A stretch of 64,000 bases of DNA from contig DATKNL010000010.1 in assembly GCA_035541435.1 (NCBI GenBank), positions 30,250 through 94,249 of the forward strand. Direction: 5' to 3'. The DNA comes from Minisyncoccota bacterium. Its GTDB lineage: Bacteria; Patescibacteriota; Minisyncoccia; UBA6257; 2-01-FULL-56-20. Made by a program: the position numbers and the translations under genes. Within the stretch, counting starts at the first letter, position 1. Each line of letters starts with the position of its first letter. Under the pieces are notes generated by a model. It ran no database searches. It was not told the DNA's origin and worked only from the letters and a program-made list of their open reading frames with translations. Of this stretch, positions 13,681-62,995 are shown piece after piece.

Positions 13681-13796
13681 GTCTTTTGGGGAAAACGTAA
13701 GGACCTTTTTGGTTCTGTTCTTACCATTCATTATCTAAACAGATTGTAAACACCGCAAGGACCACTTATCCACAAGCCGTCAAGGGTCTTTCCCGA

Positions 13797-21359: not shown

Positions 21360-21549
21360 ATCTCGGGGGTCGATATTTCACAAAACTCGGGCTCCGATAT
21401 TTACGTATTCATTATATAAAATGGCGCATTTGACTAACTGTGGATAAGAATTTTTAATAGGATAATTTTGAGCAAAATAGGCAATAGTTTTTGACAGAAC
21501 GCCCGCCCTCCTATAGAAAGAAGGGAGCTACTATCTCACGGAGGTTCTC
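21360..21549. promoter_or_regulatory. AT-rich divergent promoter region between the surface-protein array (-) and the YeiH-like gene (+)
   Basis: AT content is about twice that of flanking DNA. Plus strand: TTGACA (21491-21496), 15-nt spacer, TATAGA, GGAGG SD 6 nt before ATG 21550. Minus strand carries TATATAAT. Direct repeat CGATATTT(C/A)AC twice. TGTGGATAA (21439-21447) is a perfect DnaA-box 9-mer. Confidence 0.4.
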
Positions 21550-21649
21550 ATGAACCAAATCGGCGTTCCCGCATCCCGGCTGTCCACCGACTGGTGGGCG
21601 GTCATTGCGGCCTTTGCGGCAACCATCCTCATAAAACTGGGGGTGCTCC

Positions 21650-23157: not shown

Positions 23158-23288
23158 CCTCGCACACATCCTGCATGAGCATGAAAAGGGATTCTCGGAG
23201 GCGCGCAGGCGCCGAGAGCATAGGCGGCCGGTCAGCAGACCGGAACGCCGTCCCTTTTCATGCTCATGTAGGATGTGCCCTCGCGAGG
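23158..23288. repeat. Imperfect ~34-bp inverted repeat (arms 23158-23191 and 23251-23288) separated by a 59-nt GC-rich loop; the right arm overlaps the 3' end and trailer of tRNA-Arg
   Basis: Arm1 CCTCGCACACATCCTGCATGAGCATGAAAAGGGA. Reverse complement of arm2 is CCTCGCGAGGGCACATCCTACATGAGCATGAAAAGGGA. The 26-nt core has 1 mismatch. Confidence 0.6.
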
Positions 23289-23347
23289 AATTGAACCTCG
23301 ATCTTCTCCTTCGGAGGGAGATGTCCTATCCGTTGAACGACGGGGGC
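23276..23347 (-). tRNA. tRNA-Arg (anticodon CCG)
   Basis: Manual fold of the minus strand: GCCCCCG-TC-GTTC-AACGGATA-GGAC-A-TCTCC-CTCCGAA-GGAGA-AGAT-CGAGG-TTCAATT-CCTCG-CGAGGGC-A. Has U8, a 7-nt anticodon loop with U33 and CCG at 34-36, a TTCAATT T-loop, and one C-A mismatch in the acceptor stem. CCA is not encoded. Confidence 0.7.
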
Positions 23348-39858: not shown

Positions 39859-40338
39859 ATGATCGCTCTCGGCATCGATCCAGGCACGCGACGAGTCGGC
39901 TTCGGGGTCGTCAGGCAGGAAGGCAACGAAGCCCGCCTCATCAAAGCCGACATCGTGCCCGTTTCAAGCTCGAACGACGTCGACGCGCTTTTCGAGATCA
40001 AGGCGTGCATCGACGGACTGATCCGGCGTCACAAACCCGACGTCATAGCGGTCGAAAAGCTTTTCTTCTCGAAAAACCGGACGACGGCGATCGCCGTAGC
40101 GCAGGCCCGCGGGGTCATCCTGCTTGCCGCACGCGAGGGCGGCGTACGCATCAGGGAATACGGACCGAACGAAGTGAAGATCGGCGTCACGGGTTATGGC
40201 GCAGCCGACAAGAAGGCGGTGCTTAAAATGGTGCGCCTCATCCTCAAAAAACCGGCCCTTTCAGTGATCGATGATGCGAGTGACGCACTCGCGCTCGCGA
40301 TCATCGCATGCGGCGACCGCACTTATCCACATCCGTAA
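39859..40338 (+). CDS. ruvC: Crossover junction endodeoxyribonuclease RuvC
   Basis: MIALGIDPGTRRVGFGVV...VIAVEKLFF...DDASDALALAI catalytic acidic residues. Confidence 0.9.
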   Translation: MIALGIDPGTRRVGFGVVRQEGNEARLIKADIVPVSSSNDVDALFEIKACIDGLIRRHKPDVIAVEKLFFSKNRTTAIAVAQARGVILLAAREGGVRIREYGPNEVKIGVTGYGAADKKAVLKMVRLILKKPALSVIDDASDALALAIIACGDRTYPHP

Positions 40339-42819: not shown

Positions 42820-43932
42820 CTAGGACTTCAGGATGGGTTTTAAAACGTAGAAATACGACGTATCGCTTGTCGATCTGATGAGCGCGGGGTTCGCGTCCTC
42901 CCGAAGGCCAAGAAAGATGCTGTCTGTCTTGATGGCTTTCAGAGGGTCGGCGAGATAGCGCCAGTTGAAGTGCGTTTCAATCATCTCACCTTTTATCTTG
43001 GCGGGGAGGGTGTAGACGTTCTCACCAAGCGCCTGATCTGCGGAACTCATCTCGATGGCTTTCTTATTCTGGTGCACTTTGATCTTAATCTCGCTGTTTT
43101 TTTGGCCAAAGATCCCCGACAGCTTCACGGCGTTTGCCAATTCCTCCTTTTCAACCGCTATTTCCGTGGAAAATTCATGAGGAATAATCGCTGAATAGTC
43201 GGGGAATGATCCGTCGATGAGGCGTGAAACCAATTCGGTTTTTTCGGTTTTAAAAAGAATCTGGTTCTCATCCATGGTGATCCTCACCAATTCCTCGTCC
43301 TTAAGGATCCTCGAGGCTTCCAGGCCTGTTTTAAGCGGAACCAGGACCTTAAAGGGATCCATATTCTTTGCGGTAAAAAGACTGGAGGATAGGGTCTTTT
43401 CAGCCAGCCTAAAACCGTCGGTCGACGCCATCTTCAGGTTTTCAATCGAAAAATCGAAAAAGATGCTGTTCAGTTCGGGTCGTAAGTCGGAAAACTGCGA
43501 AGCTACGGTTACCTGCTGGATCGCCTCCTTGAGGAAAATGCCCTTTATTTCCAAATAGCCGCCCCCGGTTTTTATCTTCGGCGTGATCGGAAAGTCATCA
43601 GCCGGCATGCCGTTTATTGTGGCACTATAATTGTCGGTCGTGATTTCGATGTTGTTTCCCTTTTTCTCGAAGTTGAGGCGGTCGCTCTGAATGCTCCCGA
43701 TGACACCCGATAAAAGGTTGAGTGGCGCCGTTGTCTTGCCGTTCTCGATGACCTTTCCGACGACGGCGTGATTGATCGCGATCTCAAGATTGGTCGCTGA
43801 AAAAGATATTCCCTTGTCGTTCGTCTCGATGAGGATGTTTTTAAGTATGGGAAGGTTCTGATTTTCTCCCGTCGCCCTCTCGATGACCGACAAGGCTTCT
43901 TTGATATTCGATCGGATCGCGATAAATTTCAT
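42820..43932 (-). CDS. dnaN: DNA polymerase III beta sliding clamp
   Basis: 370 aa, MKFIAIRSNIKEALSVIERATGENQNLPILKNILIE. Three-domain length. Directly downstream of dnaA. Confidence 0.9.
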   Translation of the reverse strand: MKFIAIRSNIKEALSVIERATGENQNLPILKNILIETNDKGISFSATNLEIAINHAVVGKVIENGKTTAPLNLLSGVIGSIQSDRLNFEKKGNNIEITTDNYSATINGMPADDFPITPKIKTGGGYLEIKGIFLKEAIQQVTVASQFSDLRPELNSIFFDFSIENLKMASTDGFRLAEKTLSSSLFTAKNMDPFKVLVPLKTGLEASRILKDEELVRITMDENQILFKTEKTELVSRLIDGSFPDYSAIIPHEFSTEIAVEKEELANAVKLSGIFGQKNSEIKIKVHQNKKAIEMSSADQALGENVYTLPAKIKGEMIETHFNWRYLADPLKAIKTDSIFLGLREDANPALIRSTSDTSYFYVLKPILKS

Positions 43933-44069
43933 TTCAGTAATCTTAATATATCAAAGATATAAAGAAATTTATTTTTATTATGACTATTAGGGACTGCGTT
44001 GTGGGGATAATTTCGAAACGACTGATTTTTAAAGATTAAGATCTGATTTTTTTCTCACGCATCCTGTTA
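43933..44069. other. AT-rich dnaA-dnaN intergenic region: candidate DNA unwinding element / oriC
   Basis: 137 bp at about 75% AT inside GC-rich DNA. Near-consensus DnaA boxes TGGGGATAA (revcomp TTATCCCCA, 44002-44010) and TTATCAACT. More boxes lie upstream of dnaA at 45504-45522. Confidence 0.45.
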
Positions 44070-45461
44070 TCAACTCTTGAATATCATATCCTTAATCATT
44101 AATATCTTCTGATTCAACCCTGGATTTCTATTGACCTCATGACTGATCTTTTCATAAGAATGGATCGCGGTGGTGTGATCCCTCCCCAATTTTTCACCAA
44201 TATACGGATAGGAAAGTTCCGAGATATCCCGAAGAAGATAGATGGCGATCTGCCGCGGCTCGACAATTTCTTTGCGCCGATTGTGACTCATAAGATCCTC
44301 GACGGAGATATTGAAGAATTCCGCGACCGTCTTGAGAATCTGTGCGTCGCTGACCCGCTTGGTGAGGTTTTGAGTCGATTTTTCAATGATTTCCGCGGCA
44401 ATATCCTCGGTGATCTCAGTCTGCTTCCGCTCTTCGTAGAATAGGATTTTTTTAAGGATGCCCTCGAGTTCGCGGATGTTCTTGCGGAGCTTTTTAGCGA
44501 TGATATCGATGACGGGGTCGCTAAGCTGCCGGTTCGTTTCCTGAAGTTTTGCCTTGATGATGGCGACCCGCGTTTCAAATTCCGGATAGGCGATGTCGGC
44601 GATAAGGCCGCCCTCAAAACGGGAGCGAAGCCGCTCTTCGAGGGTTGGAATCGACTGTGGGGGCCGATCAGAGGATATGATGATCTGCTTGTTCCCCTCA
44701 TAAAGGGCGTTGAAGGTGTGGAAGAATTCCTCTTCGGTCTTGTCTTTGCCGCCGATGAACTGAATGTCGTCGATGATCAGCACGTCGACATCGCGGTATT
44801 TCTTCTTGATGCTCTCGATGCGGTCGTTTCTGATGCCCCAGACGATATCGCGGGTGTATTGCTCGGATGCGACATATTTCGGACGGACCCTTCGCTGGTG
44901 TTTGACGAGGATTTCGTTGCCGATCGCCTGAATCAGGTGCGTCTTACCAAGGCCAACCCCTCCATAAATGAAGAACGGGTTGTATTTTTTGCCGATATTC
45001 TCGACGATGGCGCTTGCGGCTGCGAACGCGAGCTCGTTCGATGGGCCGACCACGAACGAAGCGAGGGTATATTTCGGGTTAAGGTTCGTTTCAGGGTCCG
45101 TTTTGAAGTCGAGGTCCATGACCTCGGCCTTTGCGAGCGTCGCGGTCGTGTTTTGAGGGACTGCGCGGGCTACGGCGGCCGCCTTGGCTCCGACGACGAA
45201 CTCGATCTTCTTCACCGAACTGTCCAGATTCCGCAGGATGCCGAGAAGATTCTTCTGGTATTTGTTCTCAACCCACTCTTTTGCGAAATTATTCGGCAGG
45301 GCGACATAGAGCGTGCCCTCCTTCTTGTCGATAAGCCTGCTGTTCTTCACCCAGGCAACGAAATGCGCTTTCGAAAGTTGGACTTCCATCTCACCAAGTG
45401 TCGATTGCCACATTTGATCAAGGTCCATGGTGAAATGATTCTTGTTTGGTTCATTATTCAT
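44070..45461 (-). CDS. dnaA: Chromosomal replication initiator DnaA
   Basis: Start at ATG 45461 ([10 protein letters not shown]). [23 protein letters not shown] Walker [15 protein letters not shown]-terminal DNA-binding domain ...[19 protein letters not shown]. Confidence 0.9.
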
Positions 45462-45593
45462 CGAAACACTTGTTCTTGTCAAAGCGACGACGGAAATCGT
45501 TTTGTGGATTATGTGTGCATAAGCCGTTTTGACCGTCGCGGAGCGATCCGGTCGGGGGTTGCTTTTCTTTCCGAACCTGGTACCATCATAGGC

Positions 45594-45728
45594 ATGTCGC
45601 TTACGTATAACCCCAAAAAGAAAAAGCGCCGCCGAACGCACGGTTTTTTAAATCGACAACGGACGGCAACGGGGCGAAAAGTCCTTTCGCGTCGCCGCGC
45701 GAAGGGCCGAAAGAAGCTGACGGTCTAG
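45594..45728 (+). CDS. rpmH: 50S ribosomal protein L34
   Basis: [44 protein letters not shown] matches the bL34 consensus. Lies within the longer track ORF 44718..45728. Confidence 0.85.
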
Positions 45729-45739
45729 GGGTGATCATC

Positions 45740-46033
45740 ATGACGCGCTTGCCGCGTACGGAATTCAGGGCGCGGGGGTATCAATCGCTTCATACCAGCT
45801 ATTTCTCGCTGAAAAAGAAGCAAAACGGAAGGAGCGATGTGCGGATCGGCGTCGTTGTTCCGAAAGGCGTGCATAAGACGGCTGTTCGAAGGAATTTCTG
45901 GAAGCGCCAGGCGCGGACGGCGGTTCCCCAGCGGATCTGGCGGGGGTATGACCTCATCATCGCGCTGCGTCCCGCGGTGAACGACCTTACGAGACGGCAG
46001 TTCAGGGACATGATTGCGAAAATAACTCCATGA
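45740..46033 (+). CDS. rnpA: RNase P protein component
   Basis: Basic ~98-aa protein (VVPKGVHKTAVRRNFWKRQAR) immediately after rpmH. ATGA overlap with yidC. The track starts at GTG 45731. Confidence 0.75.
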   Translation: MTRLPRTEFRARGYQSLHTSYFSLKKKQNGRSDVRIGVVVPKGVHKTAVRRNFWKRQARTAVPQRIWRGYDLIIALRPAVNDLTRRQFRDMIAKITP

Positions 46034-46737
46034 ATTGGTACCAAGTCATTTTTTATCAGCCGGTTCTCAATCTGCTGATCTATGTTTATGACACGATTGC
46101 GCTCCACAGCCTCGGATTCGCCATCATTCTCGTCACCATCCTCATCAGGGTGGTTCTTTTTCCCTTCTTTCACCGCGGTGCGAAGCAGCAGATGCTTATG
46201 CAGCGCATCCAGCCGCACGTGAAGAAGATTCAAGAGACGCACAAGGACGACATTCAGAAGCAGTCCGCGGCGCTCATGGCGCTTTACAAGGAGCACGGCA
46301 TCAATCCGTTCTCGAGCTTTCTGCTGCTCATCATCCAGATTCCCATCATGATCGCCCTGTATTGGGCCGTGCGCTCGGGGCTTGGCACGGGACACATCAC
46401 GGGCCTTTATTCGTTCGTGCCGGTTCCAAGCGGCATCAACACGGTCTTTCTCGGCATCGTCAACCTGGCGAATCCCAGCCTGATCCTGCTGCTCGTCGCC
46501 GCAGCCGCCCAATACGCCCAGGCGCGGCTTGCCATCTATAAGCCGCCGCAAGGCCACGTCCTTTCGCCCGCCGAGCGGATGGCCCGGCAGATGTCCTTCA
46601 TCGGCCCCCTGATCACCCTCGTCATCTTCTATAGCCTTCCCGCCGCCGTGGCGCTCTATTGGATAACCACCTCGGTCTTCGCAAGCATCCAGCAGGTGTT
46701 CGTCAACCGCACGCTTCGGGAGAAATACGGATCGTAG
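46030..46737 (+). CDS. yidC: Membrane protein insertase YidC/Oxa1 (short form)
   Basis: 235 aa. ILIRVVLFPFFHRGAKQQMLMQRIQPHVKKIQETHKDD...LYKEHGINPFSSFLLLIIQIPIMIALYWAV is the conserved YidC core. Confidence 0.85.
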   Translation: MNWYQVIFYQPVLNLLIYVYDTIALHSLGFAIILVTILIRVVLFPFFHRGAKQQMLMQRIQPHVKKIQETHKDDIQKQSAALMALYKEHGINPFSSFLLLIIQIPIMIALYWAVRSGLGTGHITGLYSFVPVPSGINTVFLGIVNLANPSLILLLVAAAAQYAQARLAIYKPPQGHVLSPAERMARQMSFIGPLITLVIFYSLPAAVALYWITTSVFASIQQVFVNRTLREKYGS

Positions 46738-46813
46738 CGCGGGCGAAAAGGCGCCTTATGCGGCTGCGGGCGCTTGATTTTGTGTGGAAAATATGGAATA
46801 GTAACCAGCATAT

Positions 46814-47317
46814 ATGGATTGGGAGACCTTCATCAAAACCACGTTCGACCTCATCGGGTTCAAGGATTACCGTCTGGAAGTGAAGCCGCAGGAAAAGCAC
46901 GCGTCGCTTTTCATCTATGAGGACCAGAACCTCATGCGCGAAAGCCTGCCCTCGATCGTCGAAAGCATCAACCACCTGATTCAGATGGTTGCCAAGAAGC
47001 ACGCGACCGAGACGATCTTTCTCGACGTGAACAACTATCGGCAGGAGCGCGAGAACCTTATCGCGGAACTCGCACGCGCGGCCGCCAAAAAGGCGCTTGC
47101 GACAAAAGAAGAGGTGTCGCTTCCCGCAATGAACTCCTACGAACGCCGCCTGGTGCACGTCGAGCTCGCCATCCATCCCGAAGTGCGAACCGAAAGCATG
47201 GGGATGGGCAAGGAGCGCTACGTTGTCATCAAGCCGATTACGGACGGATCAGAAAAAGGAAGCCCGGCCGTTCCCGCATCCGAGACCGACACCGAAGCCG
47301 AACCGGGAACGGAATAG
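46814..47317 (+). CDS. jag: Jag/KhpB RNA-binding protein (KH plus R3H)
   Basis: R3H motif NSYERRLVHVELA. Canonical position after yidC. Confidence 0.8.
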   Translation: MDWETFIKTTFDLIGFKDYRLEVKPQEKHASLFIYEDQNLMRESLPSIVESINHLIQMVAKKHATETIFLDVNNYRQERENLIAELARAAAKKALATKEEVSLPAMNSYERRLVHVELAIHPEVRTESMGMGKERYVVIKPITDGSEKGSPAVPASETDTEAEPGTE

Positions 47318-60065: not shown

Positions 60066-60163
60066 TTACCTCTATTATAGCTCTGACTTCCTCTTCTGTA
60101 TTAGGGCTTTATCCACACAAAACGCTTATTTTTCCGATCATTCCGAATGTCCGGGCGCTGAAA

Positions 60164-60934
60164 TCAGAAAAAAAGTTTTGCGATCGTGGCAACGTTGTCG
60201 ATTGCAAGGTCCTGCGGCCGCTCCGAGGCGTTGATTCCTGCTTGGGCGAGCGTTTTTTCGATAAATTCGCGCGATTTGTCGGCGTGAGCCGCCACGTTGT
60301 TGAGAATCGTCTTGCGCGGTTGCGAGAAAACGGCCCTGACGGCGGAATAATACCGATCCTGACCGACGTCGCCATCGTTTTCCCTGAGCGCGAGAAGGAC
60401 AACGGCCGAATCAACCTCGGGCGGCGGCGAAAAATCGCCTTTCGGAACCCGTGCGATGATCGTCGCATCGGCCCAGAACTGCACGCTTGCCGCGAGCCGA
60501 TTCATGTGCGGAGGCTTGGCCGAGAGGCGTTCGGCGACCTCGTCCTGCACCATGAGGATGGTCCGTTCCGGCTTGTGCGGAAGCTCGCTCACGAGGCGCA
60601 GGAGCTTCCCGGTGATGTAATAAGGGATGTTGCCGACGAGCTTCCATGAGGCCCCGCCCATTTCGCTGACGGCAGAAGGAAGAAGCCTGAGGGCGTCGCC
60701 TTCCTTGACGGTCACCGCGGGGAGGTCGCGTACGAGTGCGGCGGCAAGCCGCGCGTCCTTTTCGAGGACCGTGATATTCGCCGCACCCGCCGATGCTTTG
60801 ACGATGCGGCGCGTGAGCTCGCCGTGTCCCGATCCGATTTCGATCACGGCATCCCCCGCTCCGACGCCAAGCGCGGACGCGATCTTGTCCGCGACCGCGG
60901 CGTTGCGAAGGAAGTGTTGGCCAAGTCGTTTCAT
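60164..60934 (-). CDS. rsmA: 16S rRNA (adenine1518/1519-N6)-dimethyltransferase RsmA/KsgA
   Basis: Start at ATG 60934 (MKRLGQHFLRN). SAM motif VIEIGSGHGELT; NIPYYIT. Confidence 0.85.
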   Translation of the reverse strand: MKRLGQHFLRNAAVADKIASALGVGAGDAVIEIGSGHGELTRRIVKASAGAANITVLEKDARLAAALVRDLPAVTVKEGDALRLLPSAVSEMGGASWKLVGNIPYYITGKLLRLVSELPHKPERTILMVQDEVAERLSAKPPHMNRLAASVQFWADATIIARVPKGDFSPPPEVDSAVVLLALRENDGDVGQDRYYSAVRAVFSQPRKTILNNVAAHADKSREFIEKTLAQAGINASERPQDLAIDNVATIAKLFF

Positions 60935-60935
60935 A

Positions 60936-62930
60936 TCAGTCGAGAAATACGGAACGCTCTTCGAACCCCTCAGATTCGTCGAAACCATCGGAGTCGCCCG
61001 CGCCGAGGCCGCGCCGGCCGCGGGTGCCGTCACCATCATCATACGACGAGGCGCTCCCCGCGGCGAACGTGACGCAGTCCTCGGGAATTTCCGAAATGAA
61101 CCGCGACGGGATTCCATAAAAGCTGATTGCGAGGTTCTTCCGCGCCCGCGTCATTGCGACATACATCAGTCGCCGCTCCTCTTCGAGCGACGCGTCGTCG
61201 TCGAGCGAGCGGCCGTGCGGCAGGAGTCCCTCGGCGGCTCCCGCGATGAAGACCGTATCGAACTCGAGTCCTTTCGCAAGATGAATGGTCATAAGGCTCA
61301 CTTCCTCCCCCCGGTTTTTCTGTTCGTTCACGTCGTCGGTCGCCTGAAGCAGGCTGAGCTTTTCGAGGAAGTCCGGCAGCGATTCGAATTCTCCGGCAAA
61401 CGCAACGAGTTCCGCTATGTTCTCTTCGCGCTCGTCGGAGTTGATGAAGTTATCTTCAAGATATTCGACGTAGTTGAACGTTTCAAGAAAAAGCTTGAGC
61501 GCGTCGACGGGTTTGATCGCGGGACCGCCGTCGTCCGCGGCGGTCGGGCCGCCCTGGAAGGCCGATTTTATAAGCCTTGCGCGGAATTCGGCGAATCGGC
61601 GCTTCGTGAGGTTTTTCTCAAGCCGGTCCTTCGCGACCTCGTCCTTGTCGTTCGAGATGTAGCGCAATGCGGCCATCGCATCTTTCACTTCGCGCCGTTC
61701 ATAGAACTTGAGGCCGCCGAAAATGCGATAGGGAATGTCGCGACGGATGAGCGCCTGTTCGATCGCGCGCGACTGCGCGTTCGTGCGATAGAGGATGGCG
61801 ATCTCTTCGGCCGCATCCTGCCGTTCGCCGCGGTTCCCCTGCTCCTCGCGCCGCAGGTCGTCGCGTACCCGCCGCTTGCCGATCTCCTGCGCGATCCATT
61901 CCGCCTCTTCGTTCTCGCCCCAGGCCTCGAAGAGCGCGATGCGCTCGCCGTCGGGATTCTTGGTCCAGAGGTTCTTCGGCGTGCGGAACGAGTTGTTCTT
62001 CACGACGCCGGCCGCCGCGCGGATGATCGTCCCGGTCGAGCGGTAGTTCTCTTCCAAAAAATGCACCGAGGCGCCCTTCCAGACCTTGTCGAAGTCGAGG
62101 AACGTCTTGATGTTCGCGTAGCGCCAGCTATAGATCGTCTGCTCGTCATCGCCTACGACGCTCAGGTTGCGATGCCCTTCGGCGAGAAGCGTGATGAACT
62201 CGCACTGCTTCGGGTTGATGTCCTGATATTCGTCGACCAGGATCGCGTCGAACATCGATTGATATTTTCTGAGCACGTTCGGATGCTGCCTGAAGATCGC
62301 GACCGGCTTCTCGATCAGGTCGTCAAAGTCGAACGCGTTATTGCGCGCGAGTGCCGCCTCGTAGTGCTCGTAAACCTTCACGACATTCCTCGAGGTCCCA
62401 TCGGTTGCGGCCCGCAGCTCGTCGATGGCTCCGTCTTTGTTCTTGATCTCGGAAATCCTCTGCCCGAAAAACGCCGGCGTCTCCTTCTTGTTCAGCCGCT
62501 GCCGGTTGCCGAATGCCCCGTCCTCTTTCGGGGGCTTGGGCAGGACCGCCTTGACCGCCTTTTTGAGCAGGTCGAACGAATCGTGATCGTCAAAGATGGC
62601 GAAATTCGGACTGCGGCCAAGAAGCCGGCACTCCTTTCTGAGGATCCTCGCGCCCAGGGAGTGAAAGGTGCTGATCAGGGGTCCCGGAATGCTCACCCGG
62701 TTCGCCATCTCCTTTGCCGCCTTGTTCGTGAAAGTGATGGCACAGATTCGTTCGGGGCTCATCCCTGACTCGATAAGATGGACGATCCGGCTCGTGAGCG
62801 TCTTGGTTTTCCCGGTCCCAGCGCCGGCCACTATTAAAAGAGGCCCGTTTTTAGCCTTCGCTGCGGCTGACTGGGCCGGATTCATGGGGAAAATCGGTGG
62901 ATTTGCCCTATTTTGATTGCTGCTCGTCAT
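60936..62930 (-). CDS. pcrA: ATP-dependent DNA helicase PcrA/UvrD family
   Basis: GPLLIVAGAGTGKTKTLTSRI (motif I), ILVDEYQD (motif II), FTVTFSKAAKEM-type motif Ia, C-terminal VAMTRARKNL (motif VI). Confidence 0.9.
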   Translation of the reverse strand: MTSSNQNRANPPIFPMNPAQSAAAKAKNGPLLIVAGAGTGKTKTLTSRIVHLIESGMSPERICAITFTNKAAKEMANRVSIPGPLISTFHSLGARILRKECRLLGRSPNFAIFDDHDSFDLLKKAVKAVLPKPPKEDGAFGNRQRLNKKETPAFFGQRISEIKNKDGAIDELRAATDGTSRNVVKVYEHYEAALARNNAFDFDDLIEKPVAIFRQHPNVLRKYQSMFDAILVDEYQDINPKQCEFITLLAEGHRNLSVVGDDEQTIYSWRYANIKTFLDFDKVWKGASVHFLEENYRSTGTIIRAAAGVVKNNSFRTPKNLWTKNPDGERIALFEAWGENEEAEWIAQEIGKRRVRDDLRREEQGNRGERQDAAEEIAILYRTNAQSRAIEQALIRRDIPYRIFGGLKFYERREVKDAMAALRYISNDKDEVAKDRLEKNLTKRRFAEFRARLIKSAFQGGPTAADDGGPAIKPVDALKLFLETFNYVEYLEDNFINSDEREENIAELVAFAGEFESLPDFLEKLSLLQATDDVNEQKNRGEEVSLMTIHLAKGLEFDTVFIAGAAEGLLPHGRSLDDDASLEEERRLMYVAMTRARKNLAISFYGIPSRFISEIPEDCVTFAAGSASSYDDGDGTRGRRGLGAGDSDGFDESEGFEERSVFLD

Positions 62931-62995
62931 TGTGGTAACATAACCATATTAGTACCCTAGTCGTAAAAGTTAAAAGTAGGTATAAACCACTTTCA

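Follow-up and report, generated by a model that had tools for sequence, protein, structure and literature searches.

The closest described systems to which the locus presented here can be related are the two-part origins of the Firmicutes, and among their components the basal unwinding system, for which a sequence rule has been formulated. According to this rule, a DnaA box with at most two mismatches is followed, on the side to which the box points, by a spacer of 0-16 bp and at least three trios of the form 3'-NAN-5'; spacer lengths peak at 10-13 bp, the trio most frequently found beside the box is GAT, and a tandem second DnaA box is present in 57% of the predicted origins, but is not obligatory (PMC8287927). 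Patescibacteria are not mentioned in this survey of the unwinding system, and in the literature that was searched no description of oriC architecture in Patescibacteria was found. On the protein side, ten residues of Bacillus subtilis DnaA (I190, K222, R202, R206, F218, H231, R264, L269, G317 and R321) are essential for single-strand binding or filament contacts, and on the DNA side a distal box acting by looping over hundreds of base pairs is needed in this organism unless DnaA is overproduced (PMC6669920).

The region under consideration is located in a stretch of 64 kb, the whole of which is referred to as the window, and very likely represents the region of the chromosomal replication origin in an uncultured bacterium of the Patescibacteria (Paceibacterota/CPR). 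Its features are, from left to right:

42820-43932, minus strand: dnaN, DNA polymerase III beta clamp, 370 aa, with the Pfam domains DNA_pol3_beta, _2 and _3, i.e. all three beta-clamp domains
43933-43975, no strand assigned: predicted DNA unwinding element, 43 nt, A+T-rich (14% G+C), adjoining the trios on their downstream side
43976-43990, minus strand: five DnaA-trios CTAATAGTCATAATA, read as 5'-CTA ATA GTC ATA ATA-3' (complement 3'-GAT TAT CAG TAT TAT-5')
43991-44001, minus strand: G+C-rich 11-nt spacer CAACGCAGTCC between box and trios, read directly from the sequence
44002-44010, minus strand: DnaA box TTATCCCCA with one mismatch, oriented toward the trios and dnaN
44011-44069, no strand assigned: rest of the dnaA-dnaN spacer, A+T-rich, not conserved
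44070-45428, minus strand: dnaA, 452 aa, Pfam DnaA_N, Bac_DnaA (1.2e-64) and Bac_DnaA_C
45453-45482, minus strand: dnaA promoter-like site TTGACA-18-AATAAT, 11 of 12 matches to sigma-70
45503-45511, minus strand: DnaA box TAATCCACA, near-consensus
45514-45522, minus strand: DnaA box TTATGCACA, near-consensus
45503-45522, minus strand: the latter two as tandem same-direction boxes TTATGCACA-ca-TAATCCACA, head-to-tail in an 11-bp register
45594-45728, plus strand: rpmH (Pfam L34, 1.9e-19)
45731-46033, plus strand: rnpA (Pfam)
46030-46737, plus strand: yidC (Pfam)
46814-47317, plus strand: jag/R3H (Pfam)

The oriC gene neighbourhood dnaN-dnaA/rpmH-rnpA-yidC-jag recognized in the first-pass annotation of this DNA is supported by Pfam for all six genes, so that the site is located next to the indicator genes of a classical oriC, with rpmH-rnpA-yidC-jag (45594-47317, plus strand) being divergent from dnaA. 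A scan of the GTDB species genomes with the DnaA protein retrieved 80 loci, all of them on metagenome-assembled genomes of Patescibacteria labelled Paceibacterota, Minisyncoccia, Liptonbacteria, Parcubacteria and similar, with DnaA identities from 89% down to 53%, and the gene order jag-yidC-rnpA-rpmH/dnaA-dnaN is kept in nearly all of them. The low G+C content of dnaA and dnaN shows the same offset in nearly all 80 relatives, and horizontal transfer was consequently rejected as its cause. The window belongs to ENA contig ERZ27256510:k141_595828 (158,720 bp), position x of the window being position x + 17,033 of that record. Since housekeeping genes are encoded on this contig (ruvA/B/C-type genes, a Mur ligase, CTP synthase, NusA, ClpP and a tRNA), it is chromosomal. 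Rfam and tRNA scans returned a tRNA-Arg at 23275-23347 as the sole match and no non-coding RNA in the origin region.

The DnaA protein can be aligned along its entire length with that of B. subtilis (structure 8BTG; E = 2.7e-108), to which it is about half identical as counted by eye on the alignment, and has conserved the Walker A motif (GGVGLGKTH), the arginine finger (LRSRF) and the DHTT motif of the DNA-binding domain. Seven of the ten essential residues are identical (K222, R206, F218, H231, R264, L269 and G317) and the three others are changed conservatively, I190 to Val and R202 and R321 to Lys. Judged from this alignment to 8BTG, the DnaA-residue element of the basal unwinding system is present, and the protein retains the residues on which filament formation and single-strand binding depend.

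Unwinding probably takes place in the dnaA-dnaN spacer (43933-44069), the sequence of which conforms to the rule for a basal unwinding system, with strand separation itself being predicted. At 28% G+C, i.e. 72% A+T, the spacer is as A+T-rich as previously annotated, if not quite at the approximately 75% given there. Read on the minus strand, a 59-nt A+T-rich part is followed by the box, 11 nt, the five trios and finally 43 nt up to the dnaN start codon; the first part (44011-44069) contains two minus-strand copies of AAAAATCAG, which appear on the plus strand as CTGATTTTT at 44022-44030 and 44043-44051. Compared element by element with the rule of Pelliciari et al. 2021, the box TTATCCCCA has one mismatch where two are the limit, the five trios begin after an 11-nt spacer, a length inside the 10-13 bp peak, with the consensus GAT in the box-proximal position, the remaining four trios departing from the consensus, and the A+T-rich region past the trios is provided by 43933-43975, which would function as the unwinding element. 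A tandem second box beside the trios is absent from the dnaA-dnaN spacer when searched for at up to two mismatches. The 60-mer 43922-43981 has the lowest G+C content of the whole 64 kb, 12% compared with 25% for the next lowest, and a box with at most one mismatch followed by at least four NTN triplets within 16 nt occurs at this single site in the 64 kb, both strands considered.

With respect to the DnaA boxes, scored as mismatches to the consensus TTATCCACA, three are observed in the two spacers at up to one mismatch, compared with a mean of 0.08 in mononucleotide shuffles of both spacers, and none of 20,000 shuffles reached three. Three near-consensus boxes had indeed been annotated before, with the start of TAATCCACA, which is 45503, misplaced by one base. 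Even at up to two mismatches no further box was found in either spacer. The locus with its one box at the unwinding site in the dnaA-dnaN spacer and two boxes upstream in the rpmH-dnaA spacer is box-poor and therefore falls short of the classical oriC criterion (Ori-Finder/Mackiewicz 2004), which asks for three or more clustered boxes, each with one mismatch at most, spaced less than 100 bp apart on average.

Conservation in the clade was assessed by testing the dnaA-dnaN spacers of 79 Paceibacterota relatives for the oriented box-trio layout. The published rule applies to 57 of the 79 spacers in forward direction and to 17 in the reverse complement, with a mean of 12.0 in shuffles; a strict rule, which requires at least two CTA triplets, retains 30 spacers in forward direction and none in the reverse complement, with a mean of 0.3 in shuffles. 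The boxes themselves are predominantly oriented forward in these spacers (108 versus 26 reverse). In an alignment of the spacer from the window with those of eight close relatives, the box is the sole strongly conserved block, with the columns of ATCC-C invariant and a period-3 A-rich run after the box, and the dnaN start ATGAAATTTATCG is kept. Typical relatives read TTATCCACTTATCCACA-cacc-CTACTACTA..., and a degenerate second box, such as TTATCCACTTATCCACA, is found in many of them. As judged by these patterns, a predicted box-trio unwinding module is present and under selection across Paceibacterota, in agreement with the earlier assignment of a DnaA box and an A+T-rich unwinding element to the dnaA-dnaN spacer, which can now be specified as an oriented module conserved in relatives.

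In a neighbouring subclade, the trios alternate between NTA and NCA, which violates the published rule that the middle adenine is invariant.

What is observed are the sequence elements, the order, spacing and orientation in which they occur, their conservation in the clade and a DnaA with the required residues; from these the following course of events can be proposed. DnaA would bind the box TTATCCCCA (44002-44010), upon which ATP-DnaA would oligomerise unidirectionally onto one strand of the five trios 11 nt away (43976-43990), and the oligomer would open the adjoining stretch of 14% G+C (43933-43975) for helicase loading.

GC skew was examined as recommended in the first-pass annotation. 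The raw cumulative GC skew has a minimum near 43 kb in the window; the third-position skew per gene, on the other hand, tracks the coding strand to the left as well as to the right of the site, and the raw skew is therefore no independent evidence. As the V at 43 kb is largely the product of a plus-strand PBP block beside minus-strand genes, raw skew was discarded as evidence for an origin. In a strand-corrected test, GC3 skew was fitted on gene strand and on the side of a candidate switch point over 80.7 kb with 70 genes, part of a 158.7-kb contig in an incomplete genome. The best origin-type switch was obtained on either side of dnaN, at 42.8-43.9 kb, with a side coefficient of +0.027 and a permutation p of 0.008 at the position fixed in advance and of 0.078 for the maximum over all positions. 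The strand-corrected skew thus gives modest support for the origin.

Gene orientation is in agreement, with the exception of two blocks. Over at least 52 kb to the left of dnaN, the series of minus-strand genes is interrupted only by a single gene at 21.6 kb and by five genes in a block at 38.5-42.8 kb, as broadly described before, and to the right of 63 kb the plus strand carries most of the genes. In between, a 15.6-kb block (47.3-62.9 kb) with type IV secretion system (T4SS) genes, ksgA and uvrD is encoded on the minus strand, as also correctly noted previously, and is head-on to the rightward fork; transcription and replication run in the same direction on the left and, past 63 kb, on the right as well. 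The suggestion that the T4SS locus is a later insertion next to the origin is not supported, since about 50 of the 80 relatives have genes for VirB4, a 342-aa protein, a pilin and a 409-aa protein beside jag with the orientation unchanged, and T4SS genes near dnaA, dnaN, rpmH, rnpA and ksgA in Patescibacteria have already been published (PMC12102498). With the neighbourhood conserved in the clade and on record, the head-on orientation is an old feature and not a sign of recent insertion, and the T4SS locus an old, conserved neighbour of the origin. As in the published loci, a cluster of VirB4, PrgI, TraC-like and pilin genes is located beside jag-yidC-rnpA-rpmH-dnaA-dnaN with ksgA nearby, and the window is a further example (PMC12102498).

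Perfect TTATCCACA boxes occur in the window also at 13766, 21439, 40323 and 60109, in or beside promoter-like sites, which belong to the PBP1A operon and to genes for a PKD protein in the T4SS block, for a YeiH-like membrane protein and for a surface protein. The closest relatives have kept the PBP1A box, and DnaA probably acts as a transcription factor at these other promoters. A further box, TTTTCCACA at 46783 in the yidC-jag gap, is kept in only 3 of 69 relatives and is therefore treated as a chance occurrence.

The existence of these promoter-associated boxes favours an explanation in which the boxes at dnaA and dnaN, like those elsewhere, control transcription only and the functional origin has another chromosomal location, comparable to E. 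coli, in which dnaA and oriC are far apart. The low box count at dnaA points in the same direction, and the incomplete genome, with the skew covering 80.7 kb rather than the whole chromosome, leaves room for it. To our knowledge, however, a module of oriented box, 11-nt spacer, trios and A+T-rich stretch has no role in transcription, and this module, which occurs nowhere else in the window, is conserved throughout the clade. The best switch of the strand-corrected skew is located beside dnaN, gene orientation reverses around dnaA-dnaN, and in bacterial genomes generally the skew inflection is often close to dnaA (PMC7111523). On balance, an origin elsewhere is improbable, and an origin at dnaA-dnaN is the preferred reading.

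The two boxes upstream of dnaA give rise to a second alternative, according to which the origin is indeed located here, but unwinds in the rpmH-dnaA spacer, with the box in the dnaA-dnaN spacer only regulating dnaN. Such an arrangement is found in Pseudomonas and many other Gram-negative bacteria, and the rpmH-dnaA spacer contains two helically phased tandem boxes compared with one in the dnaA-dnaN spacer. Tandem pairs or triples of boxes, mostly preceding the promoter, are also conserved in the upstream spacers of the relatives, which contain 63 forward and 3 reverse boxes, and in many relatives, as judged by eye and not counted, same-direction boxes are followed by TTTGAC and then TAnAAT. 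The composition of this spacer speaks against unwinding, as it has 47% G+C and is without a trio run in the analysed genome, the strict box-trio rule applies to none of 73 upstream spacers of the relatives, and a conserved promoter is located within the 71 nt between the boxes and dnaA, with the A+T minimum and the trios residing in the dnaA-dnaN spacer. Unwinding upstream of dnaA is consequently a very improbable explanation, less probable than an origin elsewhere on the chromosome.

With unwinding assigned to the dnaA-dnaN spacer, the upstream pair reads better as a dnaA operator or a distal element than as part of the unwinding site. The pair had been annotated as an origin element and is present, directly preceding a site at 45453-45482 with a putative promoter role; it ends 20 nt upstream of the -35 element without overlapping the promoter, and the leader between promoter and the dnaA ATG is approximately 17 nt. 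From this position in front of the dnaA promoter, the pair (45503-45522) is most likely the site of dnaA autoregulation, through which DnaA would control its own gene. As B. subtilis needs a distal box that acts by looping, the pair may also serve the origin and possibly double as a distal DnaA platform which would loop to the unwinding site. The layout resembles that of a two-part origin, with boxes flanking dnaA on both sides and trios and unwinding element only on its downstream side.

That one of the other A+T-rich intergenic regions, 21360-21649 or 62886-62995, whose 60-mers rank second and fifth in the window for low G+C content and the former of which carries a perfect TTATCCACA box, is the origin can practically be dismissed, as each has at most one box and is without a trio run in the right orientation, the box at 21439 is located inside a promoter-like TTGACT-N17-TTTAAT, the corrected skew does not switch at 21 kb and does so only more weakly near 66 kb, and neither region has the gene context of an origin.

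For the metagenome-assembled genome, the origin at dnaA-dnaN fixes the likely start of replication, which matters for the orientation of the assembly and for coverage-based estimates of growth. The box-trio module of Firmicutes and other cultured phyla extends to Paceibacterota, a small extension of a known pattern, and current understanding is unchanged by the findings on the origin. A more far-reaching idea, which we put forward as speculative and rather doubtful, is that Paceibacterota run on a stripped-down origin with one box and few imperfect trios and employ DnaA in transcription as well, as a factor by which initiation would be coupled to genes of the envelope and the T4SS.

Among the known systems, dnaA promoters autoregulated by DnaA, as in E. 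coli and B. subtilis, resemble the upstream part of the locus in that boxes are located directly upstream of a sigma-70-type dnaA promoter; P. aeruginosa gidA has been cited beside them (PMC13438810). The locus differs from these promoters in that its boxes end before the -35 element, at the distance given above.

The downstream part finds its counterpart in the basal unwinding system incC of B. subtilis, which is equally located between dnaA and dnaN (Richardson 2016, 2019; Pelliciari 2021). Common to both are a box directed at the run of trios, a short spacer rich in G+C, trios on the strand of the box (CTA-type on top, complement 3'-GAT-5'), an A+T-rich stretch and then dnaN, as well as a DnaA with the essential single-strand-binding and filament residues. 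In contrast to B. subtilis, where the tandem pair #6/#7 is located beside the trios and incC has seven boxes, a single box, the variant TTATCCCCA, is present here and only the first trio is GAT. As the required distal box region, only the pair upstream of dnaA, at a distance of 1.5 kb, comes into consideration.

The two-part origin of C. difficile, with oriC1 in the rpmH-dnaA and oriC2 in the dnaA-dnaN spacer, has the same gene order, boxes in both spacers, and trios in the dnaA-dnaN part (oriC2) with the unwinding element downstream of them (PMC7561715). Its oriC2 trio sequence, CACCTACTACTATTACTACTATGA/CTACTACTATTACTACTA, is approximately identical to that of many Paceibacterota relatives. 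Clostridia possess 9-19 boxes in oriC1 and 5-9 in oriC2 compared with 2 and 1 here (PMC7561715), and in the window, unlike in C. difficile, the upstream box pair abuts the dnaA promoter. Cumulatively, the region is ordinary, and its arrangement of sequence elements suggests the organisation of a Firmicutes two-part origin (B. subtilis incAB/incC; C. difficile oriC1/oriC2), an expected origin built like the Bacillus/Clostridium type with very few DnaA boxes.

In the window as a whole, matches to TTATNCACA number 5 versus 0.31 expected, and outside the origin four perfect DnaA boxes stand out:

40323-40331, plus strand: perfect box TTATCCACA at the 3' end of ruvC
13766-13774, plus strand: perfect box TTATCCACA, intergenic
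21439-21447, minus strand: perfect box TTATCCACA, intergenic
60109-60117, plus strand: perfect box TTATCCACA, intergenic

Directly downstream of the box in ruvC, after a gap of 10-13 nt, lies a promoter-like TTGACA-N17-TATACT, behind which follow an open reading frame for an acidic product of 53 aa and the PBP1A gene. This box is kept at the equivalent position in the closest relatives (L002-L007 and L017), and overall in 19 of 67 loci. The PBP1A locus may constitute a DnaA-regulated cell-wall operon. Among the three intergenic boxes, one precedes a surface-protein gene by 35 nt, the box at 21439 falls within the spacer of a promoter-like TTGACT-N17-TTTAAT associated with a YeiH-like gene, and one is located 44 nt upstream of the gene for a 711-aa PKD protein in the T4SS block, the conserved minus-strand genes right of jag.

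Large minus-strand genes for surface proteins form an array with a high G+C content of 64-69%, which occupies 1-21359 of the window and about 8 kb farther left on the contig (L082), encodes fn3, Ig-like, cohesin, dockerin and WxL-interacting domains and is adjoined by ABC/FtsX transporter genes. Two genes which the open reading frame list makes too long follow the T4SS block and share its strand; the called products are:

60164-60934, minus strand, start 60934: KsgA, 256 aa
60936-62885, minus strand, start 62885: UvrD-type helicase, 649 aa

At the origin itself (42820-45428), dnaA (51% G+C, GC3 0.67) and dnaN (48% G+C, GC3 0.64) are distinctly lower in G+C than their flanks (about 60%, GC3 0.75-0.90). 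Horizontal transfer as the source of this offset is ruled out, as it has the same direction in nearly all of the 80 Patescibacteria relatives. On the other side of dnaA, the start of rpmH is preceded by a conserved element:

45578-45594, plus strand: extended -10-like TGgTACCAT, ending 7 nt ahead of the rpmH ATG

The loci L002-L011 carry TGnTAtCAT at equal distance from the rpmH start, and the placement of the site suggests that the rpmH mRNA is leaderless.

The dnaA-proximal half of the dnaA-dnaN spacer harbours a pair of repeats, 21 nt apart, present as a single copy in L002 and absent from more distant loci:

44022-44030, plus strand: CTGATTTTT (AAAAATCAG on the minus strand)
44043-44051, plus strand: CTGATTTTT, second copy

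A reverse-oriented box TGTGGATAA occurs in the spacers of L026, L029, L032, L033, L041, L048, L061, L067, L071, L073, L081 and others; in these more distant relatives it begins 2-45 nt past the dnaA stop codon and faces forward boxes near dnaN. No such box is found in the spacers of the window and its close relatives. With respect to the DnaA-trios, 3'-NAN-5' triplets beside a DnaA box, the published search rule (Pelliciari et al., 2021) overlooks the dnaA-dnaN spacers of the neighbouring subclade L003, L004, L007, L009 and L011. The triplet run of this subclade switches between NTA and NCA (for example CTA ACA GTA ACA GCA GTA ACA ATA), and the middle adenine of the 3'-NAN-5' trio is therefore not retained there.
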